DNA of 64,000 nucleotides from Verrucomicrobiota bacterium (GCA_035411585.1 DAONTI010000010.1:47370-111369); one strand, 5' to 3'; positions 23,617-46,095 are shown, counted from the stretch's first letter. Numbers and translations are program-made. The notes: generated by a model not told the origin, from the sequence alone.

Positions 23617-23847
23617 ACCCCGGACCGCCGGCCCAGGAAAGTATCCAATCACCCGGCAAGCTAGGCATTGCTTGATGAATAAATATGCGGCATGTTGCCC
23701 TTGACGGAAAACGATTTTCCGGGCAGGATGGGCCGCGAACATGAACAAATTTTTTGTCCGTGAACAACCAAAACACAGTGTAACCAGCACGTAATCACAT
23801 CGTTGAATCCGATCTTCCAGACACAACCGCAACCATACTCATACCAC

Positions 23848-24657
23848 ATGACCTGTTCTCCCTACTTACGTCGGCGCCGGTCGGCGTTCACCTTGATTGA
23901 ATTACTAGTGGTCATTGCGATTATTGCCATCCTGGCGGCCATGCTGTTGCCCGCCTTGGCCAAGGCCAAGGAAAAGGCCAAACGGCTGGGTTGCTTGAAC
24001 AACTGCAAACAACTCGGCTTGGGCAGCCTGTTGTACGCGGCGGACAATGAGGGGCATCTGGCCGGCCACACGTGGAATTGGAATTCCGGGTATTATAATA
24101 CCGCCTTGGGACAGATCAGGAGCGGTCTAAGTGACCGGGACGGGCGGGACGATGACATGAACTGGCTGTGGCCGACCTATGTGAAGAATGGCGTGGGCGG
24201 CGCGGGGCAGAGCAGTTATGTCTGTCCGGCCACGCGGAATGCGGTATCCACCAACCTCATACGGGATACGGTGGCCGGAGTGGATAAATTGCAACAACTC
24301 TGTGACAATGCCCGGACGCCCAAGGACACCCGGGGCCATAGTTATGAGTGTTTCGGGAATCTGACCGGCTCCCGGAAAAAGACCGAGCAAGCGGTGGCCG
24401 GCTGGACGATCATCAACTACAGGCAGGCGCTGGGCATCAAGCCGGGGGCCTCGCAGATTTTCCTGATCACCGACGCGGATGATGTCCCGGAGCCCGGCAT
24501 CGGCGACAACGAGAATTATCCGGATCCAATGGACAACCACGGTGCGCTCGGCCAGAATGTGGTGTTTTGTGACGGCCATGCCGAATTTGTGAAGCAGAAC
24601 CGCTGGCTCCACGTTTGGAACCTTTCCCACGACTCCAACCATACCAAGGGCGATTAA
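23848..24657 (+). CDS. prepilin-type N-terminal cleavage/methylation domain protein (pseudopilin-like)
   Basis: [52 protein letters not shown]. Shares [26 protein letters not shown] and [19 protein letters not shown] with 9812..10570. The ORF is open from 23803. Confidence 0.9.
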
Positions 24658-24714
24658 ACCATAACCACGGCAATCGAAATTACACCAAAAACCAAACACA
24701 AACCCCAAGGACCA

Positions 24715-27700: not shown

Positions 27701-28887
27701 ACGGCAGCCCGATGTACCGGATGTTGATTCCGTGGACGGCGGAATGGGAAAGCTGGGGCTCCTTGGGGGATGGGGTGCAGTTGGATGACTCCGAGGCGCG
27801 CAGCACTTGGGATTCCGCCATTGGCGTTCCCAATCTCACCGGTTCGACTGGCACCGGCCGCAAATCCGTTGCGGTGACGGCCGACGTGCAAGCTTGGGCG
27901 AACGGCGAAGACAACTACGGCTGGTACCTGCCTGGCTGGGATCCTTCCGGCTGGAGCGGAAACTGGGACTTCTGGGCGATTGCCCCGTCCCAGCATGAGG
28001 ACATCACCCGGCGGCCTTCGCTGCTGGTGAAGTGGGTACCGGAAGGCACGTTGGCAACCAGCTTCCGCTACGGTGTCAACGATTACACGGCCACCTACGA
28101 CAGCCGGGTCCGGAGTGGGCGTTATGCCGATGAAGACGGATCTACAGCGATCGCGCTCTTCCCGGATTGGGAAATCAACACCGAGGCCGATGACCGGGAT
28201 ATCGGCTTGATCCGGTTCGAGGAGATCATTGGTGAGGAAGCCGATCAGGTGCCGCCGGGGGCGACGATTCACTCGGCGCAGTTGGACATCGCCGCCTTCC
28301 AGTCGAACTCGCCGGGCAACGGGTTCTATCTGCATTACATGCTCCAGCCGTGGAATGACACGGATACGTGGAACATGCTGGGCGATGGCGTGCAAGCCGA
28401 CGGCGTGAAGGCGGCGGTCACGCCGACCGCAATCCTGCGGGACTTCAGCACCGCCATTATACCTTACGTGCCGGGTGGGTATCACTCGCTGGAGGTGAGG
28501 CCGGATGTGCAGGCCTGGGCCTACAAACAACGGCCGAACTATGGTTGGGTCGTTCTGCCGTTCGAGTTCGGACGGGATGGATTCGGCTTCGGAACGGCGG
28601 AACACACTGATGTGGAACGGCGGCCGCAACTGCGGGTGTTCTACTCGCCGGGCGAAATTCCCGAGCCGGAAGACATCACGTTGACCCTGCCGGTGTGGAG
28701 CCCGTCGCAAGTGGTGGTCGGCTTCAACGCCAAGGCCAACACCACCTACACGGTACAACGGGTGGGGCAACTGGGTGATGCCTGGCAAACCATTGGCCAG
28801 GCGATGACCGACGGCGATGGCCACGGGAATTACGAAGACAAGTCGCCCTTGGCGGGTGCGGCGTTCTATCGCGTCGTATTGCCGTAA
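24715..28887 (+). CDS. giant secreted protein (1390 aa): novel N-domain + 3 Calx-beta-like repeats + 2 DNRLRE-like modules + C-terminal FYRV domain
   Basis: Has a signal peptide. The N-terminal roughly 380 aa are paralogous to those of 29205..32288 and 41889..45296 (HHGVAA..., AWFPYP, DPVAFVFIPKTN, WEIQSRDTPGMGLQTP, CTFVFIPAP). Three ~110-aa repeats follow (GITVTPTNNLVTSEDGGTAQFTV...). The protein ends AAFYRVVLP. Confidence 0.9.
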   Translation: MKNTKNTLLTRLRRGARLSSGLLRVPAVLTAVAMALTLLWPAATQAARVHHGVAAANLQVDQIYYPDENGQWPDPLTNENTNALVTTLLSINDFRAITSDWYTNAVDEFGVPTSWHQWWNRADYQIQIGPTRGDDITGGVMMAAVAQNGRNNYGVTRYPVCAVHDGWRICTFANNHDDPLIKAGDGYEYNVNVAGAWFPYPDYIGALVRNSERKNGQTNDMLIGHSSLVLGQHFYWWANGRFIVDLRDLGFDSRTDGVMITTHGKDEQNFALSQINTTNGTWTLYTKDMSQPTYGNFEQDPVAFVFIPKTNTMLISGMFNGDGSIVIHSGDTPQFTVRPKSDVGAGRWELKIPGHSPASGVLIISACAGGTLNTDNIVSYEPDGDGWEIQSRDTPGMGLQTPKGNLGEPEPVCTFVFIPAPTPGITVTPTNNLVTSEDGGTAQFTVELDFKPTADVTIGVSSSNPAEGVVDVTSLTFTPNNWNIPQVVTITGQDDAVADGQVAYTIVLAKAVSADPQYHDMKPADVAVLNADNEAGITVSKNWLVTTEAGGTDSFTVVLNTAPTADVTIGLASSDVGEGTVFPASLVFTPDNWNIPQTVTVTGVDDVVDDGDAPYAIVFAAAVSADAAYNGVKGADVPALNLDNDEAGIIVTPQELTVSETGTTANFTVVLGTRPTADVVISYVSGDPTEGVVTPASRTFTPDNWNTPQTFTVTGVDDAENDGDITYNLQGSVTSSDAVYAAMIPAPILVTTLDDEAELALPSGPVQYGIGTTGIGLDGWATLTDSVANYNGGNLTVVVTNNGSADDRLTLRNEGVEEGQVGVSGANVTYSGIPVGTLAGGEGLTPLVVTFNNAVTPAVAQALVRAVTFSNVAEEPSLADRTVTVIVNRGAGSSAAEKLVHVGLVRVTHFQEGADHGYGVYTGAQNNNLWALNEGTAYPEGSHADGLAIGFAGVQMLDRAILLRFDDIIGEGPGQIPPNATIVYAEFQFFVSNNGDGSPMYRMLIPWTAEWESWGSLGDGVQLDDSEARSTWDSAIGVPNLTGSTGTGRKSVAVTADVQAWANGEDNYGWYLPGWDPSGWSGNWDFWAIAPSQHEDITRRPSLLVKWVPEGTLATSFRYGVNDYTATYDSRVRSGRYADEDGSTAIALFPDWEINTEADDRDIGLIRFEEIIGEEADQVPPGATIHSAQLDIAAFQSNSPGNGFYLHYMLQPWNDTDTWNMLGDGVQADGVKAAVTPTAILRDFSTAIIPYVPGGYHSLEVRPDVQAWAYKQRPNYGWVVLPFEFGRDGFGFGTAEHTDVERRPQLRVFYSPGEIPEPEDITLTLPVWSPSQVVVGFNAKANTTYTVQRVGQLGDAWQTIGQAMTDGDGHGNYEDKSPLAGAAFYRVVLP
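25984..26985 (+). repeat. three tandem coding repeats (336+336+330 nt) of a Calx-beta-like adhesin module
   Basis: The repeats start at 25984 (GITVTPTNN), 26320 (GITVSKNWL) and 26656 (GIIVTPQEL). Each contains TADVTIG/TADVVIS, (L/R)TFTP(N/D)NWN(I/T)PQ.(V/F)T(I/V)TG.DD and a ..Y.. acidic end. Confidence 0.85.
27421..28655 (+). repeat. two tandem ~205-aa coding modules resembling DNRLRE-type carbohydrate-binding/accessory domains
   Basis: Matched motif pairs: LLRFDDIIGEGPGQIPPNATI / LIRFEEIIGEEADQVPPGATI; YRMLIPWTAEWESWGSLGDGVQ / HYMLQPWNDTDTWNMLGDGVQ; ADVQAWANGEDNYGW / PDVQAWAYKQRPNYGW; RRPSLLVKW / RRPQLRVFY. Confidence 0.7.
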
Positions 28888-28921
28888 TCATCATCCGATT
28901 GGGTAATATGGGTTGGTTCAA

Positions 28922-28951
28922 GTGCGGGACGGCGTCACGGCCGTCCCGCAC
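28922..28951 (+). terminator. hairpin terminator candidate downstream of the 1390-aa gene
   Basis: Perfect 12-bp stem GTGCGGGACGGC / GCCGTCCCGCAC with a 6-nt loop, 35 nt after the stop. It is followed by CCTTCTC, which is only a weak U-tract. Confidence 0.5.
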
Positions 28952-29204
28952 CCTTCTCGGGAAGCGAGGCGTCCGGCCTCGGGCGCCTCACAGAATCGCG
29001 AACCGTAGGGCGGTTGGTTCGCGTCTCCACTCATGACCGACCGGCGATTCTCGCTCCCCCGCACCGGGCTGTGCGCCAAAGCGCAAAGGAGCGGGCGTTG
29101 GATTCAAAAAGGCCCCTTGGGGCGGTTGGGCTGGAGGGTTCCCGTCGGCCCGGATTGAATGAGGGGCGATGAAGGACGGGTGATGTTTGCTTCGGTTCTT
29201 CCAG

Positions 29205-32200
29205 ATGACAGATATGCAAAAAGTTGATTTGAGTTGCCGGCGCTTGGGCAGTCGGTGCGCAGGTAGATTTCCGCATTTTTGGGGTTGGATGATCCTGGCC
29301 GCTTTGGCGGTGGGAGGTATCCCGTCCGCCGCCCAGGCGGGGCACGGCGTGGCTGCCGGGCATTTGCGCGTTATTCAGTTGGACGTGGGCGACACCACCA
29401 ATTCGGTGCGCGTCATTCCCACCCTGCGGATCAATGATTTTCGGCTGCGCGACGGCTCGAACCGCGGCGATTACCCGGTGCAGATCGGCCTGGCGGCGGC
29501 GGACGATGTGGCGACCGGAGTCTTGATTTCTTCCGTGGCCGAGAATGGGCGCTACAACTTTGGCACGAACAATTTTCCCATCAGCGCGGTTCACGTGGGG
29601 GCGACGGATTATCGGATTTCCACGTTTGTGCGGACAGCGGCGGTCGCCGATGCGGGGGCGGAGTATAACGTCAACGTGGCGGCGGCGTGGTTTCCCTACG
29701 ACCGCTTTTGGGGCGGCACCGCCCGCAACGCCTCCGGGTTGGATGGCGGTACCAACAATTTACTGGTCGCCTCGCCGGGATTGGTTTTGGGCCACCATTT
29801 CAAAGGGGTGGCCGCCGGGCGGTCGGTGGTGGATTTGCGGAGCTTCGGCATTGACGCGCGCACGGACGGCGTGTTGCTCGTCAATGGCGGCAAGGACGAG
29901 AACAACTTCGCGCTGTCGCAGGTCAACACCAACGACGGCACCTGGAACGTGTTCGTCAAAGATAACGCGACGCCGACGGCGAGCCAGTATGAACAGGATC
30001 CGGTGGCGTTCGTGTTCATTCCCAAGACCAACACGGCGTTGATTTCCGGGCGGTTCAACGGGGATGGCAGCATTGCCCTGTTCAGCGGCGCGGCGCCGGC
30101 GTTTACGGTCAGCAACCTGGCCGCGGGCCGCTGGGACCTCCGGATTCCCGGCCATTCCCCCCGGGCGGGCATTTTGATTATTTCCGCCGAGGGGGGCGGG
30201 CATTACAACCTGGATAACATCGTCAGTTATCAAATCAACGAGGCGGGCAACGGCTGGGAAATCCAATCCCGGGACACGCCCAACAACGGCTTGCAGACGC
30301 CCGTGGGATCGGGTGGGGAACCGGAGGCGGTTTGCTCGTTTGTCTTTATTCCCGCGGCGGCGCCGTTGTTGGTGTCGCCGGCCAATGGCGCGCCGAATCA
30401 GGCGTTGCCCCAGTTGCAAACGGTGCTGTTCAACGCGGCGCCGGGGGACCTGACCGTGACGGTTTACGGCGGCGAAGCGGCCACGCCGCCGGCCGGGCCG
30501 GACTTCACGGTGGTCGTGCTGCCGGATTCGCAAAACTACACGGATGAACGCAACGGCGCGAAGAAAGAGATGTGGTTTGCCCAGTGCGAATGGATTATCA
30601 CCAACCGGCTCTCCCGCAACATCGCTTACGTCGCCCACCTGGGGGACATCAGCCAGACGGGCGACGTCAAAGGTGGTCGCCCCAATCTCGCCGAATGGCG
30701 CAATGCGACCAACGCAATGTATCGCCTGGAAAACCGGGTGCGGACCGAACTGGCCGAAGGCGTCCCCTATGGCCTGGCGGTGGGTAATCATGATCAGACC
30801 CCGCGCGGAGATCCCTTGGGGACCACGATTTTCTACAACCAATACTTTGGCATCTCCCATTTTCTGGGGCGCACCTATTACGGCGGATATTACGGCACGA
30901 ACAACAACAATCATTATGATTTGTTCAGCGCCAGCGGCTTGGATTTCATTGTGTTGTATTTCGAATACGACATGGACGCCAACCCGGCGGTGCTGGCCTG
31001 GGGCAACGAGGTCCTGCAGGCCTATGCCGACCGGCAGGCCATTGTGGTCACGCACTACATGGGCAGCGCCACGACCCCCAGCACCTTCAGCGCGCAGGGG
31101 GCCGCCATTTACAATACGCTCAAAGGCAATCCGAATCTGGCCTTGTTGCTCGGCGGCCACGTTGCTGGTCCGGGAGGCATCGGTGAAGGTTCCCGCGAGG
31201 ATCATTACGGCGGCAACACTGTTCGCACATTGATCTCGAATTATCAATTCCGCACCAACGGCGGCAACGGCATGTTGCGGCTCATGGAATTTTCGCCCAG
31301 CAACAACACGGTGGTCGTGCAGACCTATTCGCCCTGGTCGGATGAATACGAAACCGACGAGGACAGCGAGTTCTTTTTCACGCGCAACCTGCAGCCGCCG
31401 GGCGGCACGGGTTCCCCCGGCACACCGTTCACCGTGTTGACGACGCAAACAGGAGTGGCGCCCGGCAGCCTGGTGAATCTGACTTGGCCGGGGTTGCGGC
31501 CCGATCGCACCTATCAATGGTATGTCACCGTCACCGATGCAGCGGGGAATACGACCGTGGGGGAAACCTGGCGTTTTACCACCGTGCCCAACTCCCCGCC
31601 ACGGGCCAGCAACCAACTGGTGACCATTGAAGGCGACGCGCCGGCCCCCCTGACGTTGCGCGGATCGGATCCCAACGGCGACGCCATCACTTTTGGTTTG
31701 TTCGCACCGCCCTCCCAAGGGGCGATCACCGAGTTGAATACCAACGCCGGGACTTTGACTTACTATCCCGTCCGGGGCTACCGGGGCCCTGACCGGTTTA
31801 CCTACCGGGCGTATGACGGGCGCACCAACAGCAGCATCGCCACGTTCAACCTCATCATCACCGCGCCGGCGGATACCAACGCCAATGGCTTGCCGGATGC
31901 CTGGGAGGCCGCGTACGGCATCACCGATCCGGACGCCGATGACGATCGCGACGGGCACTCTAATCGCGACGAATACCGGGCCAACACCAATCCCACCAAC
32001 GCCGCTTCGGCTTTGCGGATTACCGGGATGACCCGGCAACCCGACGGACATTTTGACTTTGCGTGGGCGTCCGTGGGCGGCACCCGGTACCGGGTGCAGT
32101 TCACCGATGCGCCTGACCCCGCGGGGCTGGCGGGTGGATTCACTGATGTCGTTCGGGCCCTGACCAACGAGATGGATTTGGGGCCGTACGGAATCATGAG

Positions 32201-32288
32201 CACCCAAAGGTTTACGGATGATTTCACCCTGACCGGGGGCGCGCCCACGAATCAAAGCCGGTATTACCGGGTCCGGGTGGTGCCGTGA
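29205..32288 (+). CDS. giant secreted metallophosphoesterase: novel N-domain + calcineurin-like phosphoesterase + cadherin/Ig-like + TSP3-like Ca-binding segment + C-terminal YYRV domain
   Basis: The N-domain is paralogous to the other two giants. MPE motifs: VVVLPDSQ, HLGDIS, VGNHDQ, VVTHY, LGGHVAG. The acidic segment reads NGLPDAWEAAYGITDPDADDDRDGHSNRDEYRANTNP. The protein ends SRYYRVRVVP. ATG 29205 was chosen; TTG 29187 and ATG 29289 are alternatives. Confidence 0.9.
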   Translation: MTDMQKVDLSCRRLGSRCAGRFPHFWGWMILAALAVGGIPSAAQAGHGVAAGHLRVIQLDVGDTTNSVRVIPTLRINDFRLRDGSNRGDYPVQIGLAAADDVATGVLISSVAENGRYNFGTNNFPISAVHVGATDYRISTFVRTAAVADAGAEYNVNVAAAWFPYDRFWGGTARNASGLDGGTNNLLVASPGLVLGHHFKGVAAGRSVVDLRSFGIDARTDGVLLVNGGKDENNFALSQVNTNDGTWNVFVKDNATPTASQYEQDPVAFVFIPKTNTALISGRFNGDGSIALFSGAAPAFTVSNLAAGRWDLRIPGHSPRAGILIISAEGGGHYNLDNIVSYQINEAGNGWEIQSRDTPNNGLQTPVGSGGEPEAVCSFVFIPAAAPLLVSPANGAPNQALPQLQTVLFNAAPGDLTVTVYGGEAATPPAGPDFTVVVLPDSQNYTDERNGAKKEMWFAQCEWIITNRLSRNIAYVAHLGDISQTGDVKGGRPNLAEWRNATNAMYRLENRVRTELAEGVPYGLAVGNHDQTPRGDPLGTTIFYNQYFGISHFLGRTYYGGYYGTNNNNHYDLFSASGLDFIVLYFEYDMDANPAVLAWGNEVLQAYADRQAIVVTHYMGSATTPSTFSAQGAAIYNTLKGNPNLALLLGGHVAGPGGIGEGSREDHYGGNTVRTLISNYQFRTNGGNGMLRLMEFSPSNNTVVVQTYSPWSDEYETDEDSEFFFTRNLQPPGGTGSPGTPFTVLTTQTGVAPGSLVNLTWPGLRPDRTYQWYVTVTDAAGNTTVGETWRFTTVPNSPPRASNQLVTIEGDAPAPLTLRGSDPNGDAITFGLFAPPSQGAITELNTNAGTLTYYPVRGYRGPDRFTYRAYDGRTNSSIATFNLIITAPADTNANGLPDAWEAAYGITDPDADDDRDGHSNRDEYRANTNPTNAASALRITGMTRQPDGHFDFAWASVGGTRYRVQFTDAPDPAGLAGGFTDVVRALTNEMDLGPYGIMSTQRFTDDFTLTGGAPTNQSRYYRVRVVP

Positions 32289-32405: not shown

Positions 32406-33905
32406 ATGAAAACAGGCGAACCGAAGAAACGAGCAGACGCCGTGGGGGCGTTGACGGATGGCGTGTATGACGTGTTGGTGGTGGGCGGCGGCATTGTGGG
32501 CGCCGGGGTGGTGCGCGACGCGGCGCTCCGCGGGCTGAAGGTGGCGTTGGTGGAGCAGCGGGATTTTGCGTTTGGCACGAGCAGCCGGTCGAGCCGGTTG
32601 TTGCACGGCGGCTTGCGGTATCTGGCGCAAGGCCGGGTGGGCTTGGTGCATGAGGCGAGCGTGGAGAAAAAGGTGGTCCACCGCATCGCGCCGCACCTGG
32701 CGGACCCGTTGCCGTTCATCTTCCCGACCTACCGGGGCAACCGGCATTGGGTGCTTTGGCAGTTGAAGATCGGCGTCAAAATTTACGACCTGCTGTGCGG
32801 CGGACGGAATCTGGGGAAATCAACGTGGTTGAGCCGGGCGGAGGTGCTGAAGACGGTGCCGGAGTTGTCGCCGGTGAACTTGAACGGGGCGGTGCGGTAT
32901 TACGATGGCCTGACCAATGACGCGCGCCTGACCCTGGATACGCTGCGGTCGGCGGCGAAGGGCGGAGCGGTGGTGGTCAACTACTGCCGGTTTGTGGATG
33001 CGACCCGGGGGGAACACTGGACCTGCACGGTAACCGACCAATTGACGGGGCGGAACCTGACCGTGAAGACGCGGGCGGTGGTGAATGCCACCGGGCCGTG
33101 GGCGGACGGGTTGCCGCACAGCCGGGTCAAACTGCGGGCGACCAAGGGAATCCACCTGGTGGTGGACCGGGCCCGCGTGCCGGTGCCGGACACGGTGGTG
33201 ATGACGGAGGAGAAACGAATCCTGTTTGCGATTCCGTGGGGTGAACGGACGATTTTGGGCACCACCGACACGGATTACCACGGCTCACTGGACCGGGTCC
33301 TGGCGGACGCGGAGGACATCCGTTATGTGCTGGGGGTGACGAACCAGTTTTTCCCGGGCGCGAAATTGCAGGCCGGGGACGTGATCAGCGCATGGGCCGG
33401 GTTGCGGCCGTTGATCGCGGATCCGAAGGGCAAACCCTCGGACATCTCGCGCTCGCACGAGATCAAAAATCCCGAACCGGGCTGGTGGGATGTGGCCGGC
33501 GGCAAGCTGACCACGTACCGGCTGATGGCGGAGCAGACGGTGGATCGGATCGTGCGTGAGCAAAAGCTGACTGCGCGGAAATGTGTGACGGCGACGGAAG
33601 CCTTGTTGCCGGAGGCGGAGGTGCGCGAGGTGAGCGGGATTTTGCCGCCGCCCATGGACCCGGCGGCCGTGAAGCATTATTGCGCGCAGGAATGGGCGGT
33701 GCATTTGGACGATGTCTTGTTGCGCCGGACCAGTTGGCACTATTACCAGACCGACATGGAAACCCAGGCCCCCCGGGTGGCGGAATGGATGGGCGAGGAA
33801 CTGGGATGGACGGCGGAACAGCGGGCGGCGGAACTGGCGGATTACCGCGTTGCCGTCGGTTTGGTGGAACCGCCCGCGAAGGCACCGGCTGGAGGCGCAG
33901 CTTGA
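32406..33905 (+). CDS. glpD: FAD-dependent sn-glycerol-3-phosphate dehydrogenase
   Basis: YDVLVVGGGIVGAGVVRDAALRGLKVALVEQRDFAFGTSSRSSRLLHGGLRYL is the GlpD N-terminal FAD fold and signature. At 499 aa the length fits. Confidence 0.9.
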   Translation: MKTGEPKKRADAVGALTDGVYDVLVVGGGIVGAGVVRDAALRGLKVALVEQRDFAFGTSSRSSRLLHGGLRYLAQGRVGLVHEASVEKKVVHRIAPHLADPLPFIFPTYRGNRHWVLWQLKIGVKIYDLLCGGRNLGKSTWLSRAEVLKTVPELSPVNLNGAVRYYDGLTNDARLTLDTLRSAAKGGAVVVNYCRFVDATRGEHWTCTVTDQLTGRNLTVKTRAVVNATGPWADGLPHSRVKLRATKGIHLVVDRARVPVPDTVVMTEEKRILFAIPWGERTILGTTDTDYHGSLDRVLADAEDIRYVLGVTNQFFPGAKLQAGDVISAWAGLRPLIADPKGKPSDISRSHEIKNPEPGWWDVAGGKLTTYRLMAEQTVDRIVREQKLTARKCVTATEALLPEAEVREVSGILPPPMDPAAVKHYCAQEWAVHLDDVLLRRTSWHYYQTDMETQAPRVAEWMGEELGWTAEQRAAELADYRVAVGLVEPPAKAPAGGAA

Positions 33906-33944: not shown

Positions 33945-35054
33945 GTGAGTCAGACCCGAGCTTCCACGGTTTCCTTCCTGGACAACTCCGCCCCTGCGGC
34001 GGAGCGGTCGGCGCGGTCCGAACCCGGGGCGATGATCGCCCGCCCGCCCCAGCGACCTTGGACGGACATCCCGGTGCGTTACTCGGATGAACAACTGCGT
34101 CTGGCGGCGCGCTTGTATTATCTGGATGGCCTGGGGCAAACCGAGGTGGCGAAATTCGTCAAAGTGTCCCAAGCGAAAGTGTCGCGGTTGCTGGCGTTGG
34201 CGCGGGAGCGCGGCATTGTGCGCATCTCGGTGGCGGAATATGAACCGCGCAACCTGGAGCTGGAACAGCAGATCTGCCAGAGATTCGGCCTGGCCGCCGC
34301 CGCTGTTTTCAAGACCGTGCCCGAAGCCACGCCGGAGGAAGCCCGACGGGCCGTCGGCCATTTTGGCGCGGCCTTTGCCGCCTCGTTGATCGCGCCCAAC
34401 AGCGTCGTGGCCATTGCCGGCGGCCGCACGATTCGGGAGTTGGTCTTGGGATTGCCCGAGGACAAGGCGCGACAGGTCACGGTGGTGCAGGCCATGGGGA
34501 GCATTGATTCCACCGTCAGCGCGGTGGACGCGCTGGAATTGGGCCGCACCCTCGCCTGGCGGATGGGCGGTTATTTTCTGACGTTGAACACGCCGGCATT
34601 CGTGCCGGACAAACGCACGCGCGACGCGTTTCTGGCGCTCCAGCAAATCCGTTCCGTCTGGCAACGTTTGGACGCGACGGATGTGGCCTTGGTGGGGATC
34701 GGCTCCTTGGACAACTCAGTGTTCGTGGATCGCGGGGTGCTGAGCGCCAACGATCTGGGCACCCTCAAGCGTTTGGGCGCGGTGGGCGAGATTTGCGGAC
34801 ACTTTTTTGACGCGGAAGGGTGCGAGTGTGATTCGCCGTGGCGCGACCGGGTGTTGAGCGTGGATTTGAATCAAGTGCGGCGCATTCCCCATGTGGTGGG
34901 CGTGGTGGTGGGCGCGGATCGCGCCGCGGCCATCGCCGCCGCCATCCGGGGTGGGTTGGTCAAGTCCTTGATCCTGGACGATGCCGGCGCCCGCTCGCTG
35001 CTCGCGCTTCCCAACGCGGTGTCCGGGGGAAAGCCGAATGGAATCTCGAAATGA
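33945..35054 (+). CDS. SorC/DeoR-type sugar-binding transcriptional regulator
   Basis: HTH segment LRLAARLYYLDGLGQTEVAKFVKVSQAKVSRLLALARERGIVRISV, followed by a sugar-phosphate-binding domain (AIAGGRTI..., VVGVVVGADRAAAIAAAIRGGLVKSLILD). The ORF starts at a GTG; ATG 34032 is an alternative. Confidence 0.85.
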   Translation: MSQTRASTVSFLDNSAPAAERSARSEPGAMIARPPQRPWTDIPVRYSDEQLRLAARLYYLDGLGQTEVAKFVKVSQAKVSRLLALARERGIVRISVAEYEPRNLELEQQICQRFGLAAAAVFKTVPEATPEEARRAVGHFGAAFAASLIAPNSVVAIAGGRTIRELVLGLPEDKARQVTVVQAMGSIDSTVSAVDALELGRTLAWRMGGYFLTLNTPAFVPDKRTRDAFLALQQIRSVWQRLDATDVALVGIGSLDNSVFVDRGVLSANDLGTLKRLGAVGEICGHFFDAEGCECDSPWRDRVLSVDLNQVRRIPHVVGVVVGADRAAAIAAAIRGGLVKSLILDDAGARSLLALPNAVSGGKPNGISK

Positions 35055-36061
35055 AAGGCCTTGCTGCAACACCGCGTAGTCGGACGCGCCCCCAGCGCTT
35101 GGTCCGGCTGGGATGGAGTGCCGGCATGGCCGGCGCGGCCCTGTTGCTCTACGCCTGCGCGGCGCCGACCCGGTCCGCACGCCAGACATCCGGGGAATGG
35201 ACGGTGCGCGGGCATCTGCCACGCCAGCAGTTTGTGGTGCAAAGCCATCGCGGCGCCGGTTTTTTGGCACCGGAGAACACGCTTGAGGCTTTTGAATTGG
35301 GATGGAAACTGGGCGCGTGGCCGGAAGCCGACGTGCGCACGACCAAGGACGGGGTGATCGTCGCTTTCCACGATGGCAATTTCAAACGGACGGTGAAAAA
35401 TCCCCCGCCGGAATTGGCCCGGAAAGGCGTGAAGGATGTCACCTTTGCCGAATTGTCCACACTCGACGTGGGCGGTTGGAAAGGCGACGCCTTTGTGGGC
35501 CGCCGGGTTTCCCGGCTCGCGGAGATATTCCAGCTCATGACCGGCCGGCCGGAGCGCATGTTGTATCTCGACATCAAACAGGTGAACCTGGCGCAATTGG
35601 CCGCCGAGGTGCGGGCCGAACGGGTGGTCAGCCAGGTGGTATTCACCAGTCCGAATTACCCGTTGATCCGCGAGTGGAAACGGCTGGTGCCGGAATCCAA
35701 GACCTTGTGCTGGTTGCGGGGACCGGAAACCAACATGACCCATCGCCTCGCGGAAATGCGGGCGTTGAACTACGCGGATTTAACCCAGGTGCAATTGCAT
35801 CTCCGGGCCAACACCAACCGCGCGTCGAGCGAACCGTTTGACATCTCCCGCGCCTTTGTGCGCGCGACCGGCGAGGAACTTCGCCGCTACGGAGTGACCT
35901 TCCAAGTGCTGCCGTGGGACCTGGCGGCGCCGGAAATTTACTGGCAATTGATGGACCTTGGCGTGATGGCTTTCGCCACGGATTATCCCGATATTGCCCT
36001 GCAAGCCGTGCGCGACTACTACGCCGGCCGCAACCGCAGCCCTGTTGATACCCGACCATGA
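35051..36061 (+). CDS. glycerophosphodiester phosphodiesterase (GDPD family), probable lipoprotein
   Basis: ATG 35051 overlaps the regulator stop (ATGA). Possible lipobox in AALLLYAC. The GDPD signature is VQSHRGAGFLAPENTLEAFELGWKLGAWPEADVRTTKDGVIVAFHD. Confidence 0.85.
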   Translation: MKGLAATPRSRTRPQRLVRLGWSAGMAGAALLLYACAAPTRSARQTSGEWTVRGHLPRQQFVVQSHRGAGFLAPENTLEAFELGWKLGAWPEADVRTTKDGVIVAFHDGNFKRTVKNPPPELARKGVKDVTFAELSTLDVGGWKGDAFVGRRVSRLAEIFQLMTGRPERMLYLDIKQVNLAQLAAEVRAERVVSQVVFTSPNYPLIREWKRLVPESKTLCWLRGPETNMTHRLAEMRALNYADLTQVQLHLRANTNRASSEPFDISRAFVRATGEELRRYGVTFQVLPWDLAAPEIYWQLMDLGVMAFATDYPDIALQAVRDYYAGRNRSPVDTRP

Positions 36062-37422
36062 TACCGCCCCCCCGCTCCCTCACTCTCGCGGAAGCCCTGC
36101 AATCCGCCCGTGAAACCCGCGCCCTGGAAATTGGGTCGGGAATCCTCGAGCAAACCCTGCGTCTGTATCGCGACCACTTCGGCGACCGCCCGGCGATGTT
36201 GGTGGCGGACGGCAACACCTACGCCGCCGCCGGACAACGGGTGGTCGAAGCCTTCCGCAAGGCGGGCCACCCGTTGCAGGATGCCTTCATCTTCCGGGCG
36301 CCCGATTTGTACGCGGAACATCGGTTCGTGACCGAACTGGAAGCCGCCTTGCAACCGCACCAGGCCATTCCCATCGCCGTGGGGAGCGGCACGATCAACG
36401 ACCTGACCAAGCTGGCGTCGCACCGCACCGGCCGTCCGTATCTGTGTGTGGCGAGCGCCGCTTCGATGGACGGATACACCGCGTTCGGCGCTTCGATCAC
36501 GTATCAAGGCGCGAAGCAAACCTTCCTGTGCCCGGCGCCGACTGCGGTGTTGGCGGACTTGGAGGTCATCTGCGCCGCACCGGGATTGATGAACGCGTGG
36601 GGTTACACTGATTTGCTCGCCAAAGTCACGGCGGGCGCTGATTGGATCGTGGCGGACGCGCTGGGCATTGAGCCGATTGACCCGCCGGCCTGGGCGATTG
36701 TGCAAGGCCGGTTGCGAGAAATGGTGGCGGATCCCGCCGGGGTGGCGGCGCGCAATCCCGAGGCGGTGGGACGGTTGGTGGAAGGGTTGATGCTCGGCGG
36801 TTTTGGCATGCAATCCTCCCGCTCCAGCCGGCCGGCTTCCGGCGCGGAACATCAGTTCAGTCATTTGTGGGACATGCAGCATCACACCCACAACGGAAAG
36901 ACCCCTTCCCACGGCTTCAAAGTCGGCATCGGCACGCTGGCGGTGGCGGCGCTGTATGAGTATCTGTTGGCGCAACCGTTGGACCAACTGGACGCGGCCG
37001 CGTGCGGCCGGCAATGGCCCGATGCGGAAACGTGGTGCCAACGCGCGCGGGAATGGCTGGGCGAGGGGGAACTGGCCGCCGGCGCGGCGAAGGAATTGCG
37101 CGCCAAGCACAGTCCGCCGGAGGCGCTCCAGGCGCAGATGGAACAGTTGCGTTCGCTCTGGCCGGAGTTGCGCGAGCAGTTGCGCGCCCAATTGATGCCG
37201 TTGGCGACGCTGCGGGAGATGTTGCGCACCGTGGGCGCGCCCACCGCGCCGGAGGAGATCGGCATCACCCGGGAACGATTGCGGCGAAGCTACTGGCAGG
37301 CGTATTGCATCCGGCGCCGGTTCACGGCGCTGGATCTGGCGGTCCGCACCGGATTGCTGGAGGCTGCGTTGGACCACATTTTTGGTCCCGCCGGCGTCTG
37401 GCCGATTGACGCGCGCGGTTAA
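36058..37422 (+). CDS. iron-containing alcohol dehydrogenase superfamily protein, sn-glycerol-1-phosphate dehydrogenase-like (AraM/EgsA clade)
   Basis: ATG 36058 overlaps the GDPD stop (ATGA). VGSGTINDLTK (nucleotide-binding glycine motif), SMDGY and SGAEHQFSHLWDM resemble the G1PDH/Fe-ADH_2 metal-site motifs as I remember them. At 454 aa it is longer than classical EgsA. Confidence 0.6.
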   Translation: MIPPPRSLTLAEALQSARETRALEIGSGILEQTLRLYRDHFGDRPAMLVADGNTYAAAGQRVVEAFRKAGHPLQDAFIFRAPDLYAEHRFVTELEAALQPHQAIPIAVGSGTINDLTKLASHRTGRPYLCVASAASMDGYTAFGASITYQGAKQTFLCPAPTAVLADLEVICAAPGLMNAWGYTDLLAKVTAGADWIVADALGIEPIDPPAWAIVQGRLREMVADPAGVAARNPEAVGRLVEGLMLGGFGMQSSRSSRPASGAEHQFSHLWDMQHHTHNGKTPSHGFKVGIGTLAVAALYEYLLAQPLDQLDAAACGRQWPDAETWCQRAREWLGEGELAAGAAKELRAKHSPPEALQAQMEQLRSLWPELREQLRAQLMPLATLREMLRTVGAPTAPEEIGITRERLRRSYWQAYCIRRRFTALDLAVRTGLLEAALDHIFGPAGVWPIDARG

Positions 37423-37451: not shown

Positions 37452-38819
37452 TTGCCGAGGTGTTTTTTGTTTAAGTCATTTCTCCAATTCTTCCTGACGG
37501 GGCCGGATGCGACCCCATTGACCGACACGGCGGAGATCCAGCGGCGCTACCGGCGCGGCCGGATTTCGGTGTTTTTATCCATCACCCTCGGCTACGCCAT
37601 GTATTATGTCGTCCGCCAGGGCTTCGCGGTGGTCAAAAAACCGCTGCTCGAGGCGGGGATCTTCGACGCCTTGCAGATCGGCAAGATCGGTTCGGTGTTT
37701 TTCCTCACCTACATGATCGGGAAGTGCGTCAACGGCTTTCTCGCCGACCGGTTGAACATCAAACGGTTTCTGGCGTTGGGGTTGCTGGCCTCCTCGACGT
37801 TGCTGGTGGTCTTGGGGTTCTGTTCCAGCTTCTATCTGTTTGCCGTGTTATGGGGGCTGTGCGGCTGGTTTCAAACCTTTGGCGCGGCACCGTGCATCGT
37901 GTCCCTGAACCAATGGTTCTCGAACAAGGAACGGGGCACTTTGTACGGCATCTGGTTTTCCGCGCACAACATCGGCACCGGCCTGACCTACATCATCACG
38001 GCCTATATCGTCGGCGCCTTTGGCTGGCAGATGGGGTTCTTCGCGCCGGGATTGCTGGGGATTACCGCGGCGGTGTTTCTGTATTTGTTCATGTATGACC
38101 GGCCCCAGGTGTACGGGTTGCCGCCGATCGCGGTGTATTCCGGCGAACAAACGCACGCCGAACACCAGGCCAAGGAAAAATCCGTGCTCCGGGCGCAATG
38201 GGCGGTCATCATCCGGCCGGCCGTCTGGATTCTAGGGTTGTCTTCCGCCGCCTGTTACATCACCCGCTATGCGTTCGAATCCTGGGGGGTTGTGTTCCTG
38301 ACCGAGGCCAAGGGATACACCTTGACCAAGGCCAGCGCCATCATCTCCATCTCCCAGTTCGCCGGCATTGCCGGGGCCATCACCTGCGGCTGGATCTCGG
38401 ATAAATTTTTTCAGCACCGCCGCAACGTGCCCTGTCTGTTATTCGGCATTTTCTTCCTGCTGTCCACGGCGACATTCGTCTATGTGCCGGCCGGTTATCC
38501 GTGGAGCGATTATGTGAGCATGGTGTTCTTTGGCTACACCGTGTACGCGTTGGTGACTTATCTGGGCGGGTTGATGGCGGTGGACATCTGTTCCAAGAAA
38601 GCCACCGGCGCCGCCATGGGGGTCATTGGTTTGTTTAGCTACGCCGGCGCGTCGCTGCAGGAAGGCGTGGGCGGTTATTTATTAAACAGCCACAAAATCA
38701 TCGGTCCGGATGGCCAAATTCTTTACGATTTCACCGCCGCCGGTCATTTTTGGGTGATCGCCTCGGCCTTTGCTCTGTTGCTTCCCTTGTTGGTCTGGAA
38801 CGCCAAACCTGAAGATTAA
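37452..38819 (+). CDS. MFS organophosphate:Pi antiporter (GlpT/UhpC family), copy 1
   Basis: EIQRRYRRGRISVFLSITLGYAMYYVVRQGF..., LADRLNIKRF, GWFQTFGAAPC and WFSNKERGT align with GlpT/UhpC landmarks. The only in-frame start upstream of the conserved N-terminus is non-ATG (TTG 37452), so the start is uncertain. Confidence 0.8.
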   Translation: MPRCFLFKSFLQFFLTGPDATPLTDTAEIQRRYRRGRISVFLSITLGYAMYYVVRQGFAVVKKPLLEAGIFDALQIGKIGSVFFLTYMIGKCVNGFLADRLNIKRFLALGLLASSTLLVVLGFCSSFYLFAVLWGLCGWFQTFGAAPCIVSLNQWFSNKERGTLYGIWFSAHNIGTGLTYIITAYIVGAFGWQMGFFAPGLLGITAAVFLYLFMYDRPQVYGLPPIAVYSGEQTHAEHQAKEKSVLRAQWAVIIRPAVWILGLSSAACYITRYAFESWGVVFLTEAKGYTLTKASAIISISQFAGIAGAITCGWISDKFFQHRRNVPCLLFGIFFLLSTATFVYVPAGYPWSDYVSMVFFGYTVYALVTYLGGLMAVDICSKKATGAAMGVIGLFSYAGASLQEGVGGYLLNSHKIIGPDGQILYDFTAAGHFWVIASAFALLLPLLVWNAKPED

Positions 38820-38843: not shown

Positions 38844-40223
38844 TTGAATCACATGACGCATTCGCCCGGTTCCGCTCCCGCCCCCGCCCCCCGTTTTCCC
38901 TGGCCCTTTCGTGTCTTCGAACCGGCGCCGCCCGCCCCGGTGATGCTGACCGATCCGACCGAGATCAAGCAACACTACCGCCGCTGGCAACGCCGGGTGC
39001 TCATCGCTTCGATCATCGGCTATGCCATGTTCTATTTCGTGCGCAAGAACCTCAGTATTGCGATGCCGGTGATGGAGAAGAGCCTGGGCATTACCAAGAC
39101 CGATCTGGGGTTGTTTCTCACGCTGCACGGGTTGCTCTATGGGCTGTCCAAGTTCGGCAATGGTTTTCTGGGCGACCGCTGCAATGCGCGCACGTTCATG
39201 GCGTTTGGCCTGGCGCTCTCGGCCGTCGTGAACATCTTTTTCGGATTGAGTTCCGCCGTGTTGACCCTCGGGTTGTTGTGGATGTTCAACGGCTTGGTGC
39301 AGGGCATCGGGTTTCCGCCCTGCGCCCGGTTGATGACCCACTGGTTTTCCCCCAAGGAACTGGCCACCAATTTTTCCATCTGGAACACGTCGCATTCCAT
39401 CGGAGCGGCGTTGGTGGTGGTGCTGTGCGGGTATCTGGTGAGCACGTGGGGGGATTGGCGGCTTTGTTTCTTCGTGCCCGCCGGCCTGGCCATTCTCTGT
39501 TCCATTTACCTGCTCTTTGCGTTGCCGGATACCCCGCCCTCTGTGGGGCTGCCGGAAGTGGAGGGCACCGCGCAACCGGAAGCCGGGACGAAAGGGTTTT
39601 CCACCGCGCTCCTCAAACAGGCGTTCACCAACAAATACATTTGGTTTCTCTGCCTGGCGAATTTCTTTGTCTATACCGTGCGGTATGGCGTCTTTGACTG
39701 GGGCCCGACGATGCTCACGGAAATGAAGGGGGTCAAACTCACCCACGCCGGCTGGATGGTGTTCGCCTTCGAGGGCGCCGGGGTGGTGGGCATGTTGATC
39801 AGCGGCTGGTTGACCGACCGGATTTTCGGCGGACGCGGCGCGCGGGTGTGTTTGATTTCCATGTGTCTGGCCGGCATTTCCATGCTCCTGTTCTGGAAGC
39901 TGCCGGGACAATCCATCTGGCTGGGCACGCTCCTGTTGTGCGCGGCGGGATTTTTCATTTATGGCCCGCAGGCGTTGGTGGGGACGGTGGTCGCCAATCT
40001 GGCCACCAAACAAGTGGCGGCCACCGCCATTGGTTTCACCGGGGTCTTCGCCTACGCCAGCACGTTGATCTCCGGTTGGGGACTGGGCGCGCTGGTGCAA
40101 CATTACGGTTGGGAAGCCGGGTTGGCCGGACTGACCGGGATGGCGGCCATCGGGATGATCTTGTTTGCCTTTGCCTGGCCGGCGCAGGCGCACGGTTATG
40201 GCGAAAACCATTCCGCGAAATGA
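38844..40223 (+). CDS. glpT: MFS glycerol-3-phosphate:Pi antiporter (GlpT-like), copy 2
   Basis: IIGYAMFYFVRKNLSIAMP, LGDRCNARTF, GLVQGIGFPPCARLMTHWFSPKE, FVYTVRYGVFDWGPT and GFTGVFAY match E. coli GlpT landmarks closely from memory. An alternative start is at 38943 (MLTDPTEIK). Confidence 0.8.
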   Translation: MNHMTHSPGSAPAPAPRFPWPFRVFEPAPPAPVMLTDPTEIKQHYRRWQRRVLIASIIGYAMFYFVRKNLSIAMPVMEKSLGITKTDLGLFLTLHGLLYGLSKFGNGFLGDRCNARTFMAFGLALSAVVNIFFGLSSAVLTLGLLWMFNGLVQGIGFPPCARLMTHWFSPKELATNFSIWNTSHSIGAALVVVLCGYLVSTWGDWRLCFFVPAGLAILCSIYLLFALPDTPPSVGLPEVEGTAQPEAGTKGFSTALLKQAFTNKYIWFLCLANFFVYTVRYGVFDWGPTMLTEMKGVKLTHAGWMVFAFEGAGVVGMLISGWLTDRIFGGRGARVCLISMCLAGISMLLFWKLPGQSIWLGTLLLCAAGFFIYGPQALVGTVVANLATKQVAATAIGFTGVFAYASTLISGWGLGALVQHYGWEAGLAGLTGMAAIGMILFAFAWPAQAHGYGENHSAK

Positions 40224-40270: not shown

Positions 40271-40726
40271 ATGCGAATTGCCATTGATTGTGACGAGGCG
40301 GGATTGCCGCTCAAACCGGTGCTCGCGGATCATTTGCGCGCCCAGGGCGTGGCGGTGACGGATTTGAATTATCAGCAGGATCATCCGGTGGATTATCCGG
40401 ATGTCGGATATCACTTGGCCCGGCGGGTGGCGGCGGGGGAATTTGACCGGGGCATCCTGATTTGCGGCACCGGTCTGGGCATGGCGATGATTGCCAACAA
40501 AGTGCCGGGCGTCTGGGCGGGCACCTGTCACGACACCTTTTCCGCCGAGCGACTCAAGAAAAGCAACGATGCCAACGTGCTGACGCTGGGGGCGCGTGTG
40601 ATTGGGCCAGAGCTGGCCAAAACCATCGTCACCGCCTGGGTGCAATCCGAATTTGCCGGCGGTGGGTCAACGGCCAAAGTCCAGCGTCTGCGTGAACTGG
40701 AACGGACCGAATGCGGGCGGGCGTGA
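40271..40726 (+). CDS. rpiB: RpiB/LacA/LacB family sugar-phosphate isomerase
   Basis: MRIAIDCDEAG..., GILICGTGLGMAMIANKVPGVWAG and DANVLTLGARVIG are the RpiB family signatures. 151 aa. Confidence 0.85.
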   Translation: MRIAIDCDEAGLPLKPVLADHLRAQGVAVTDLNYQQDHPVDYPDVGYHLARRVAAGEFDRGILICGTGLGMAMIANKVPGVWAGTCHDTFSAERLKKSNDANVLTLGARVIGPELAKTIVTAWVQSEFAGGGSTAKVQRLRELERTECGRA

Positions 40727-40772: not shown

Positions 40773-41759
40773 ATGACAGCATTTCGCGGCTCCATTTCCG
40801 ACGCGACGCCGAAACAGCATGTCTTGGCGTCGGCGTTGCCGGGGACGGAGAAGCGGGGTCGCCCCAAGTTGCCGCATTCGCGTGGGCAAAATTGGCTTGG
40901 CGGGGTAATCGGTGGGATCCTGGGGTTGATCATCTTGAGCCCGGCAATCGGCTGGGCGCATGGGGAATTATTGATCCGCATTGACGAAGTCACGCAACGT
41001 ATCGTCGCCGCCACAAACACCCCGGAACGATTGGCCCCGCTTTACGTGGAACGCGGCGATCTGTATCGCGAAGATGAGAATTGGGAGGAGGCGGAAGCCG
41101 ATTTCAACCGGGCGGCGGCGTTGGCGCCGCATTGGGCCGCTGTGGATTTTTTCCGGGGAAAACTGCGCGCCGCCACGGACCAACTGGAGGCCGCCCGGGC
41201 GTTGTTCGACAAAGTGTTGGCCCGCGACGCCAATGACGGCGCCGCGCGGGTGGAACGGGCGCGGGTGCTCGTCCGGCTGAAGGAACTCCCGTTGGCCGAG
41301 GCGGATTTTCAACGGGGCGCCACCCTGTTGGCGGAGCCGGAACCGGAAGTATTCGTGGAATGGGCGCAGGTGTTGATAACGGAGGGCCGCACCAACGATG
41401 CCTTGCGCGCGCTGGATATGGGCATCCAAAAGCTGGGCGTGTTGCCGCCGTTGCAAACCCTGGCGCTGGATTTGGAGGTGGGTCGCCGTAATTACCCCCA
41501 GGCGTTGAAACGCTTGGAAACGCTCCATGCGCGGGCCATGCGCAAGGAAGGTTGGCAGGCGCGGCGGGGCGATATTCTCCGGGCCATGGGGCGGGACGCG
41601 GAAGCGAAGACATCGTATGCCGCCGCTTTGGTTACGATCAAAGCGCTGCCGCCGCGCATCCAACAAGGCCCGGCCATGACTGATTTGCGCGCGCGCGTTC
41701 AAGCGGCGTTGGCGGAATTGGGCGAACCGCCCGCCCACAATGCCCCGGCTCCGCCGTGA
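40773..41759 (+). CDS. membrane-anchored tetratricopeptide (TPR) repeat protein
   Basis: One TM helix (WLGGVIGGILGLIILSPAIGWA) followed by TPR-like helices (LYVERGDLYREDENWEEAEADFNRAAALAP..., ARALFDKVLARDANDGAARVERARVLVRL...). The ORF-track start at 40602 overlaps rpiB, so ATG 40773 was chosen. Confidence 0.65.
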   Translation: MTAFRGSISDATPKQHVLASALPGTEKRGRPKLPHSRGQNWLGGVIGGILGLIILSPAIGWAHGELLIRIDEVTQRIVAATNTPERLAPLYVERGDLYREDENWEEAEADFNRAAALAPHWAAVDFFRGKLRAATDQLEAARALFDKVLARDANDGAARVERARVLVRLKELPLAEADFQRGATLLAEPEPEVFVEWAQVLITEGRTNDALRALDMGIQKLGVLPPLQTLALDLEVGRRNYPQALKRLETLHARAMRKEGWQARRGDILRAMGRDAEAKTSYAAALVTIKALPPRIQQGPAMTDLRARVQAALAELGEPPAHNAPAPP

Positions 41760-45345: not shown

Positions 45346-45888
45346 TCAAGGTTGGTTCAGAATCCAGTGCGCGGCACGGGGTAAATCGTCCACCACGATC
45401 GCGGGCGATCCGGCGGGCAGTTGCGCGGCTTCCTGTTGTCCGTAACCGGTGCGAACCAGCAGGCACGCTTTCACCCCTGCCCGCCAACCGCACTCCAAGT
45501 CAATCCGTTTGTCGCCAATCAAGTAACTGCGCGCGAGGTCCACGCCGAATTCATCGCGCGCGTCGAACAGGAACTGTGGCGAGGGTTTGCGTCCGCGGCT
45601 CGGCTGATCCGGCGCTTCGGGCGCGACATACACGTGGGTGAACCGCACTCCGTGGCGCGCAAATTCTTCGGCAACCCGGCGGTTGACGCGTTCCACGTCC
45701 GCGAGGGTGAAATATCCGCGACCCACGCCGGATTGATTCGTCACCTGGATCAAATGAAATCCGGCATCCTGTAATTGCCGCAGCGCCCCGCCCGCGCCGG
45801 GCAGGAGCGCCACGTCTTCGGGGCGGTGCAGATAATGGCGTTCCTCGATGAGGGTGCCGTCGCGATCAAGAAACACGGCGCGTATCAT
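45346..45888 (-). CDS. gmhB: HAD-IIIA phosphatase, D-glycero-D-manno-heptose-1,7-bisphosphate 7-phosphatase-like
   Basis: AVFLDRDGTLIEE (DxDGT), VTNQSGVGRGYF, GRKPSP and LIGDKRIDLECG are GmhB/histidinol-phosphatase-type HAD motifs. ATG 45888 was chosen; the ORF is open to 45921. Confidence 0.75.
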   Translation of the reverse strand: MIRAVFLDRDGTLIEERHYLHRPEDVALLPGAGGALRQLQDAGFHLIQVTNQSGVGRGYFTLADVERVNRRVAEEFARHGVRFTHVYVAPEAPDQPSRGRKPSPQFLFDARDEFGVDLARSYLIGDKRIDLECGWRAGVKACLLVRTGYGQQEAAQLPAGSPAIVVDDLPRAAHWILNQP

Positions 45889-46095
45889 GGTCGTATCGGT
45901 GGGGATTCTGGGGAAGCGCACCGGAATGAAAACTCTTTTCTCCCGTTATCCGAGACCGCGTACGGCGGGAAATGTGTTTTCCCCACCCACCGAAGCGCAG
46001 CCGCAAGGGCCATCTCGGAAACGGCCTGTGGCTGGTTTTCCCGTTCAGGCGATTGTTTTCACCCGGGGTGGGCGGTCCAAAATCCGAACAACGAA

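Follow-up and report, generated by a model that had tools for sequence, protein, structure and literature searches.

This work reports two paralogous genes, P1 and P2, in a 64,000-nucleotide stretch of DNA from a Verrucomicrobiota bacterium (GCA_035411585.1 DAONTI010000010.1:47370-111369; the whole stretch is hereafter called the window), each of which encodes a giant secreted protein with an embedded metallophosphoesterase (MPE) core (Table 1). Based on the findings presented here, we propose, at about an even chance, that P1 and P2 are active phosphodiesterases resembling ShfP (YvnB) of Bacillus subtilis, which free glycerol phosphate from teichoic-acid-like polymers; for this proposal we infer both the substrate and the metal site. 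The evidence comes from the conserved residues of the core, from a Bacillus homologue that links the core to ShfP, and from a glycerol-phosphate operon lying between the two genes.

The metallophosphoesterase core and its D-x-Q-x-Y signature

Both open reading frames drawn by the sequence-only reading, an earlier inspection of the window by a model without database searches, are present on the plus strand with the domain layout that it gave, and they are indeed paralogous: P1 and P2 share 62% identity in their N-terminal module (N-module), are highly similar from the MPE core to the C-terminus, and are 49% identical over a BLASTP segment that includes the extra insert of P2. The core carries the motifs LPDSQ, HLGD, GNHD, VTHY and GGHV at residues 439, 478, 527, 615 and 650 of P1, and LPDTQ, QLGD, GNHE, VTHH and GGHI at residues 552, 591, 640, 728 and 763 of P2, the individual core residues of P1 being D441-S-Q443-N-Y445 (codons 30525-30539), G480-D481, G527-N528-H529-D530, H617 and G651-H652. 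As that reading had claimed, D-S-Q and D-T-Q stand in place of the canonical D-x-H, and GD, GNH(D/E), H and GH are retained in both proteins; a point absent from it is that both proteins, P1 with GGHVA and P2 with GGHIT, also lack the second His of GHxH.

The core was placed by fold comparison only, because PDB sequence searches with the core, and with a family profile (E<=1), found no MPE. The alignment to PF00149 that had been suggested for confirming the motif substitution gave part of the answer: the isolated P1 core reached 24.4 bits, above the cut-off of 21.5, with an alignment that starts at profile position 29 and leaves motif I outside, the isolated P2 core gave no match, and neither full-length protein matched at E<=0.01. 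The structure prediction, also suggested there, returned the MPE fold. An AlphaFold (AF2) model of the P1 core, built from a 20-sequence alignment, had a pLDDT of 90.3 and a pTM of 0.91, and Foldseek matched it with probability 1.0 to purple acid phosphatases, Lmo2642, GpdQ, Mre11 and UshA, the best solved fold being that of pig purple acid phosphatase 1ute (E 2.3e-10, TM-score 0.54). In the model, D-x-Q lies directly past beta-1, GD past beta-2, GNHD past beta-3, and the two His past later strands, an order of ligand loops that is, as modelled, the canonical MPE topology. The MPE fold assignment and the mapping of the motifs appear sound, for a domain that the model places remote from every solved structure.

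The D-x-Q motif extends far beyond P1 and P2. A phmmer search with the core against 1.84 billion cluster representatives returned 6,427 matches at E<=1e-3 and 1,334 at E<=1e-30, and a word-indexed search returned 418, among which no listed protein exceeded ~610 aa, full-length orthologues being taken from the other searches. The closest members are Verrucomicrobiota (58-66% identity), and the family is also found in Bacteroidota, Acidobacteriota, Myxococcota, Planctomycetota and others, as well as in Firmicutes, Actinobacteria and haloarchaea. The size of more than 1000 aa, which had been singled out earlier as giant, is real, but it is not a special trait, since 74 of the 137 listed family representatives are at least 1000 aa long. 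Conservation was counted over 269 aligned domain copies from the phmmer and word-search matches. In motif I, the Asp is present in 259/259, the Gln in 258/259 and the Tyr two residues beyond the Gln in 257/259; GD and the Asn of GNHD are each present in 266/266 and the His of GNHD in 257; the His of motif IV and that of motif V are found in 265/265 and 264/264, respectively; and in the G-x-R-x-D following motif V the Arg occurs in 258 and the Asp in 239 copies. Only 42 of ~264 copies have the second His of GHxH (+2). The alignment indicates that D-[ST]-Q-x-Y is an ordinary, strongly conserved signature of a large family. A private substitution or decay of the motif in P1 and P2 was therefore rejected, and the special status that the sequence-only reading had given to D-x-Q gives way to that of a near-invariant family hallmark, which offers no argument for a pseudo-enzyme or for a locus-specific innovation.

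Because the M2-type ligand set (bridging Asp, Asn and two His) and the His of GNH(D/E) are, as read from the sequence, intact in both proteins, P1 and P2 are most likely active hydrolases. Both canonical His ligands of the M1 site are gone, the motif I His being replaced by Gln and the second His of GHxH being absent, and for this reason the M1 site would probably resemble the oxygen-rich sites of purple acid phosphatases and PhoD. Its ligands could plausibly be the Asp and the bridging Asp, possibly with the Gln, the Tyr or a later Asp after motif V (in P1 D666, which is D245 of the core segment, in GSRED), and could hold a hard metal.

Relation to ShfP and other phosphoesterases

ShfP of B. 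subtilis is a 1289-aa secreted protein with a calcineurin-like domain within an immunoglobulin (Ig) domain; its radiation, one of calcineurin-like phosphoesterases at the cell surface, is fused to LamG, FN3, SLH, cadherin, PQQ and NAGPA domains, and Ala substitutions at D927, D963, NHD997-999, H1080 and H1114/H1116 impair its function (PMC11488536). Genetic evidence ties ShfP to the breakdown of lipoteichoic acid (Sci Adv 2024, 2026). ShfP-dependent glycerol release requires the lipoteichoic acid synthase LtaSA, not GlpQ, and ShfP is predicted to yield glycerol 1-phosphate (G1P) (PMC13440414). The window core matched an 1847-aa SLH-domain protein of Bacillus badius (WP_223664105.1; tblastn E 8e-23), which carries the motifs SDTQYY, GD, GNHD, H and GHYH. 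Its ligand spacings, hand-counted from the alignment as 36/34/83/34/+2, are those of the published ShfP residues D927/D963/N997/H1080/H1114/H1116, and this set is shared by none of the 254 other family domains, among which 107 distinct combinations occur. Because this D-T-Q protein has the exact, otherwise unmatched ligand spacing of ShfP, ShfP almost certainly belongs to the D-x-Q family.

In P1, the equivalents of the mutated ShfP residues are D441, D481, N528-H529-D530, H617 and H652, with the counterpart of H1116 missing. When the two flanks of the P1 core were joined, they matched Pfam Big_5 (E 1.2e-4, profile positions 10-105 of 105, 23.2 bits against a cut-off of 23.6), which agrees with an MPE core inserted in an Ig-like domain as in ShfP; the joined P2 flanks, likewise a chimera, gave no Pfam match. 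P1 and P2 would belong to the ShfP-like radiation, as part of a subclade with other ligand spacings (40/47/89/35, against 36/34/83/34 in ShfP) and no second motif V His. With ShfP they have in common the signal peptide, the giant multi-domain build with cadherin, Ig and adhesion fusions, the conserved ligand residues D, D, NHD, H and H, the D-x-Q-x-Y signature, seen directly in the B. badius relative that has the spacing of ShfP, and the proposed substrate, a glycerol-phosphate polymer. Unlike ShfP, they lack an LTD domain but have a rare N-module, a triple beta-sandwich, and end in a YYRV domain; they are set in a Gram-negative nutrient-acquisition locus, whereas ShfP acts in sporulation signalling, and their genes accompany an operon for import and oxidation, whereas ShfP goes with PhoA and free glycerol. 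Elsewhere in the window, a protein with a NAGPA domain (phosphodiester glycosidase, "uncovering enzyme") is encoded at 13662-15728; as NAGPA has been reported fused to ShfP-like phosphoesterases, it may be part of the same phosphoglycan-degrading repertoire as P1 and P2.

Other known phosphoesterases resemble P1 and P2 in part. Purple acid phosphatases also have a first motif without His and a His2-Asp-Asn set of divalent-metal ligands (PMC4223295), but the pig enzyme 1UTE superposes on the P1 core with a TM-score of only ~0.54 at ~15% identity, and compared with the purple acid phosphatase pattern GDxG/GDxxY/GNH(D/E)/VxxH/GHxH, P1 and P2 have a motif II, GDI(S/V)xxGD, without Tyr at +3 and no second motif V His. 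B. subtilis PhoD, an Fe3+/2 Ca2+ phosphodiesterase, has in common with P1 and P2 an extracytoplasmic MPE fold, a non-canonical oxygen-rich site and a proposed role in teichoic acid turnover, whereas its ligand set is rich in Cys, Tyr and Asp, it has no multi-domain adhesion build, and P1 and P2 retain His2-Asp-Asn; the PhoD Pfam model did not match either core even at E<=10. The GlpQ/GDPD teichoicase and GpdQ are functional analogues in that they free glycerol phosphate from diesters or polymers, but GDPD has a TIM-barrel fold unrelated to the MPE fold, and GpdQ, with canonical D-x-H and GHxH, is small and cytoplasmic.

The glycerol-phosphate operon and the candidate substrates

The genes between P1 and P2 include two dehydrogenases, a GDPD glycerophosphodiesterase, two organophosphate:Pi antiporters (OPA family), a regulator and a sugar-phosphate isomerase (Table 1). 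The GDPD is likely extracytoplasmic like GlpQ, because it begins with a lipoprotein-type signal. For the glycerol-1-phosphate-dehydrogenase-like (G1PDH-like) protein, the best PDB matches are without exception glycerol-1-phosphate dehydrogenases (E 1.4e-41), whereas glycerol dehydrogenases reach 1e-5. The linkage of MPE and glp genes recurs among Verrucomicrobiota-type relatives and is not family-wide. One contig (L095) has the order P3-P1-GlpD-GDPD-G1PDH-MFS-MFS, where P3 is a protein that in the window precedes P1, and its G1PDH-like gene is 68% identical to that of the window; L005 has the MPE cassette, a TPR protein, then GlpD and an MFS protein, L006 has MFS-GDPD-MPE, L004 has GDPD, GlpF and GlpK within 10 kb, and a SorC regulator adjoins MPE cassettes in L012, L014 and L040. 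A linkage throughout the family was rejected, as phmmer, run with the operon proteins on 80 species-representative loci, returned hardly any matches.

The G1PDH-like gene has a partner of its own, since an orthologue of the second antiporter lies directly after it in 16 of the 36 metagenome loci that span 8 kb or more (loci listed for the pair: L091, L095, L098, L113, L117, L123-L125, L128, L130, L132, L152, L165 and L167). This pair fits an enzyme acting on an imported phosphate ester, and it has the look of a pathway by which an imported polyol phosphate, possibly sn-G1P, is catabolized. A literature search for a catabolic bacterial G1P dehydrogenase returned nothing relevant and no account of such a route. 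At the loci of this pair, GlpD, GDPD, SorC or RpiB genes are sometimes close by.

Wall teichoic acid and lipoteichoic acid are enantiomeric glycerol-phosphate polymers (PMC7086022). Based on the operon and on the kinship with ShfP, we propose the following route. First, foreign envelope material would be bound via the N-module and the Ig/cadherin domains. Upon binding, P1 and P2 would cut glycerol-phosphate polymers, either lipoteichoic or wall teichoic acids, or related glycerophospho-substituted polymers, at their phosphodiester bonds, and the lipoprotein GDPD would trim diesters. The glycerol phosphates could then be imported by the two GlpT-like antiporters, and the sn-3 and sn-1 enantiomers would be oxidized to dihydroxyacetone phosphate by GlpD and the G1PDH-like enzyme, with the SorC-type sugar-phosphate regulator controlling the gene set. 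The polymeric phosphodiester substrate suggested by the sequence-only reading thus becomes plausible through the operon between the paralogues and the published ShfP genetics, whereas for extracellular DNA, another of its candidates, the locus gives no specific support.

Several observations weigh against this proposal. The membership of P1 and P2 in the ShfP family is deduced from an intermediate homologue and an identity of spacings, the two proteins reach only ~30% identity with the Bacillus-type domain and, unlike ShfP, have no second His in GHxH, and the ShfP substrate itself has been assigned from genetics only (PMC13440414). In the 80 species-representative loci, GDPD is near the MPE in at most one and a convincing GlpD in none (0/80); conversely, among the ~21 G1PDH-like loci whose upstream sequence extends over 7 kb or more, by our own count from the locus table, an MPE is found at L095 only. 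Finally, the SusC/SusD, NPP and endonuclease/exonuclease/phosphatase neighbours of the family in Bacteroidota fit general organophosphate scavenging equally well.

This scavenging is the alternative that survives best, although we consider it rather improbable: P1 and P2 would be general extracellular organophosphate scavengers, as phosphodiesterases of broad range or nucleases, acting on extracellular DNA or RNA, nucleotides or phospholipid head groups mainly for phosphorus, with the operon as one downstream route. In the Bacteroidota loci (L024-L082), stand-alone MPE members of ~320-350 aa adjoin SusC/SusD pairs, and these look like organophosphate-directed loci of the polysaccharide-utilization type. 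Within 5 kb of the MPE in 73 species-representative loci, the commonest neighbours are SusC (23) and SusD (22), together with extracytoplasmic function sigma factor/FecR genes, NPP-type phosphodiesterases (4) and Exo_endo_phos proteins (4; of the FG-GAP type in Bacteroidota); a 697-aa Exo_endo_phos gene adjoins the MPE in L004, and extracellular DNA and phospholipid head groups are among the candidate substrates named for the ShfP radiation (PMC11488536). However, the window operon (GlpD, the G1PDH-like enzyme, RpiB) serves carbon catabolism and is dedicated to glycerol or polyol phosphates, the surroundings of P1 and P2 showed no nuclease, nucleoside transporter or Pho-type gene, and three or more further contigs of the Verrucomicrobiota type also link the MPE to glp genes.

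It is unlikely that P1 and P2 are phosphomonoesterases like the purple acid phosphatases, dephosphorylating extracellular monoesters of small size, among them glycerol phosphates or sugar phosphates. The nearest solved folds, the invariant Tyr close to motif I, and the nearby GlpF and GlpK of L004, which would use free glycerol, would suit such an activity, but the two organophosphate:Pi antiporters and the phosphate-ester dehydrogenases of the window need the phosphate left on, the ligand pattern GDxxY/GHxH is absent, and the monoesterase step downstream of ShfP in B. subtilis is assigned to PhoA, not to ShfP. Least probable by far is a catalytically dead core serving as a binding module in an adhesin, its metal site lost through the change of His to Gln: both canonical M1 His are absent in P1 and P2 and Pfam barely recognises the domain, but D, Q, Y, GD, GNHD, H and GH are nearly invariant over 269 copies from many phyla, a near-absolute conservation that points to selection on the active site and argues against a pseudo-enzyme, and ShfP, which would have the same family signature, loses function when these residues are mutated.

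Accessory domains, neighbouring genes and significance of the locus

The N-module, which the sequence-only reading had called novel, is matched by neither a Pfam nor an NCBIfam model, and the same holds for the C-terminal YYRV domain of P1 and P2. At least 34 N-module homologues, none with a Pfam domain, were listed in a word-indexed search whose entries did not exceed ~610 aa; the module is also the sole part that P3 has in common with P1 and P2 (48% identity). Its model (pLDDT 89.6) is all-beta, with three ~110-aa blocks of about eight strands, the second and third of which show homology to each other (hhalign probability 81-94%). Foldseek found no match among PDB folds at E<=1e-3, and the best structural matches were predicted cyanophage tail fibres (E 6e-7 and 6e-5), so that the module as modelled is plausibly a surface-binding one. 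A lectin was considered for the N-module and rejected, as Pfam, NCBIfam and PDB give it no support and the similarity is to predicted phage tail fibres only; the description of the two proteins as lectin-decorated is accordingly not supported.

Of the remaining domains, the cadherin-like one proposed earlier was recovered, Big_9/Cadherin_5 exceeding the Pfam cut-offs in both P1 and P2, whereas the TSP3-like segment found a weak Pfam match (TSP3_bac) in P2 alone. Signal peptides were read by eye from the translations as a hydrophobic core between a basic stretch and an AxA site, which in P2 is of the cleavage type AVA/EP. Six large secreted proteins of the window end in a [YF][YF]R[VLI] strand (YYRI, FFRL, FYRV, YYRV, YYRV and YFRL in the order of Table 1). 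Their ~95-aa C-terminal domains matched no Pfam model, and they may be a lineage-specific sorting or anchoring domain.

The cassette of the prepilin-type N_methyl/DUF1559 gene, a P3-like gene and a P1-like MPE gene (window 23803-32288) is kept in L005, L007, L008 and L015, and the order in L012 and L014 is P3-P1-TPR-P1-P3-SorC. The C-terminal DNRLRE domain of P3 (NCBIfam E 1e-11) has a counterpart in a Halobaculum plasmid protein annotated as DNRLRE (L088 3872-5692), which carries a D-T-Q-type MPE core; DNRLRE and the MPE family therefore recur together across domains of life. In 5 of the 36 metagenome loci (L133, L135, L147, L149 and L168), the G1PDH-like gene has, at a distance of 2-3 kb, an orthologue of the URO-D-family protein encoded upstream of the cassette. 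Directly downstream of P2, at 45346-45921(-), is a gene for a GmhB-like HAD-IIIA phosphatase, which probably belongs to unrelated lipopolysaccharide heptose metabolism; a HAD phosphatase is also near the MPE cassette in L005. The protein at 10598-11530(-) ends in VPEP, a hydrophobic stretch and RRQR, a PEP-CTERM-type sorting signal, and an exosortase system is therefore expected in the organism.

Table 1. Features of P1, P2 and their surroundings, in window coordinates
Feature	Position	Strand	Description or basis
P1	29205..32288	+	1027 aa; open reading frame opens at TTG 29187, ATG 29205; secreted, ShfP-like MPE
P1 signal peptide	29205..29339	+	hydrophobic core WMILAALAVGG, cleavage-type site AQA/GH
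P1 N-module	29343..30353	+	three blocks, each ~8 beta-strands; sequence comparison
P1 Ig-like domain, N-terminal half	30354..30488	+	domain split by MPE core; joined flanks against Pfam Big_5
P1 MPE core	30489..31418	+	motifs, Pfam, AlphaFold model, Foldseek
P1 Ig-like domain, C-terminal half	31419..31589	+	joined flanks against Pfam Big_5
P1 Big_9 / Cadherin_5 domain	31590..31859	+	Pfam E 2e-11 and 8e-07
P1 TSP3-like acidic stretch	31881..32009	+	Ca-binding type, GLPDAWE...DPDADDDRDG; partial Amuc_1099 match spans it
P1 C-terminal domain	32010..32285	+	ends YYRVRVVP; no family match
P2	41889..45296	+	1135-aa paralogue; P1 layout plus one Calx-beta-like insert (about 43044-43373)
P2 N-module	42030-43043	+	sequence comparison
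P2 MPE core	43512-44426	+	D554-T-Q556, D594, N641-H642-E643, H730, H765
GlpD/GlpO-like FAD glycerol-3-phosphate dehydrogenase/oxidase	32406..33905	+	DAO and DAO_C
SorC/DeoR-type sugar-phosphate-binding regulator	33945..35054	+	
GDPD glycerophosphodiesterase	35051..36061	+	lipoprotein-type signal (LLYAC)
G1PDH-like protein	36058..37422	+	454 aa; Fe-ADH_2
OPA-family MFS antiporter	37452..38819	+	GlpT/UhpC/PgtP-like
Second OPA-family MFS antiporter	38844..40223	+	
RpiB-type sugar-phosphate isomerase	40271..40726	+	
TPR protein	40935..41759	+	immediately upstream of P2; conserved position, also separating the MPE paralogues of L012 and L014
URO-D-family protein	22390-23616		upstream of cassette
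Prepilin-type N_methyl/DUF1559 protein	23803..24657	+	upstream of P3-P1
P3	24715..28887	+	1390 aa; N-module, three Calx-beta-like repeats, DNRLRE domain, no MPE; precedes P1
P3 N-module	24850-25960	+	sequence comparison
Proteins with [YF][YF]R[VLI] ending	4289-7078(-), 7742-9772(-), 24715-28887, 29205-32288, 41889-45296, 46161-48281(-)		

In soils and sediments, teichoic acids make up a large pool that is rich in phosphorus and carbon, and we know of essentially no enzymes that turn them over outside Firmicutes. Tentatively, the region of 23.8-45.3 kb may be a poly-glycerol-phosphate utilization locus, in which ShfP-like "teichoicases" with a new binding N-module would act on Gram-positive necromass, an unrecognised sn-G1P route (a dedicated OPA antiporter and a bacterial G1P dehydrogenase) would run parallel to that of glycerol 3-phosphate and GlpD, and the D-x-Q-x-Y site would be a new variant of the MPE metal site. 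The ShfP-like family itself is already known and was recently named; the new element is a Verrucomicrobiota locus that would tie it to the uptake and oxidation of both glycerol-phosphate enantiomers. As for the family, in more than 1,000 clusters the MPE fold has Gln where the first His would be and often lacks the last one. From the side of genomics, the locus argues independently that ShfP-like enzymes supply glycerol phosphates, and it offers a compact, testable gene set of two MPE enzymes, a GDPD, two antiporters, GlpD, the G1PDH-like enzyme and the SorC regulator.

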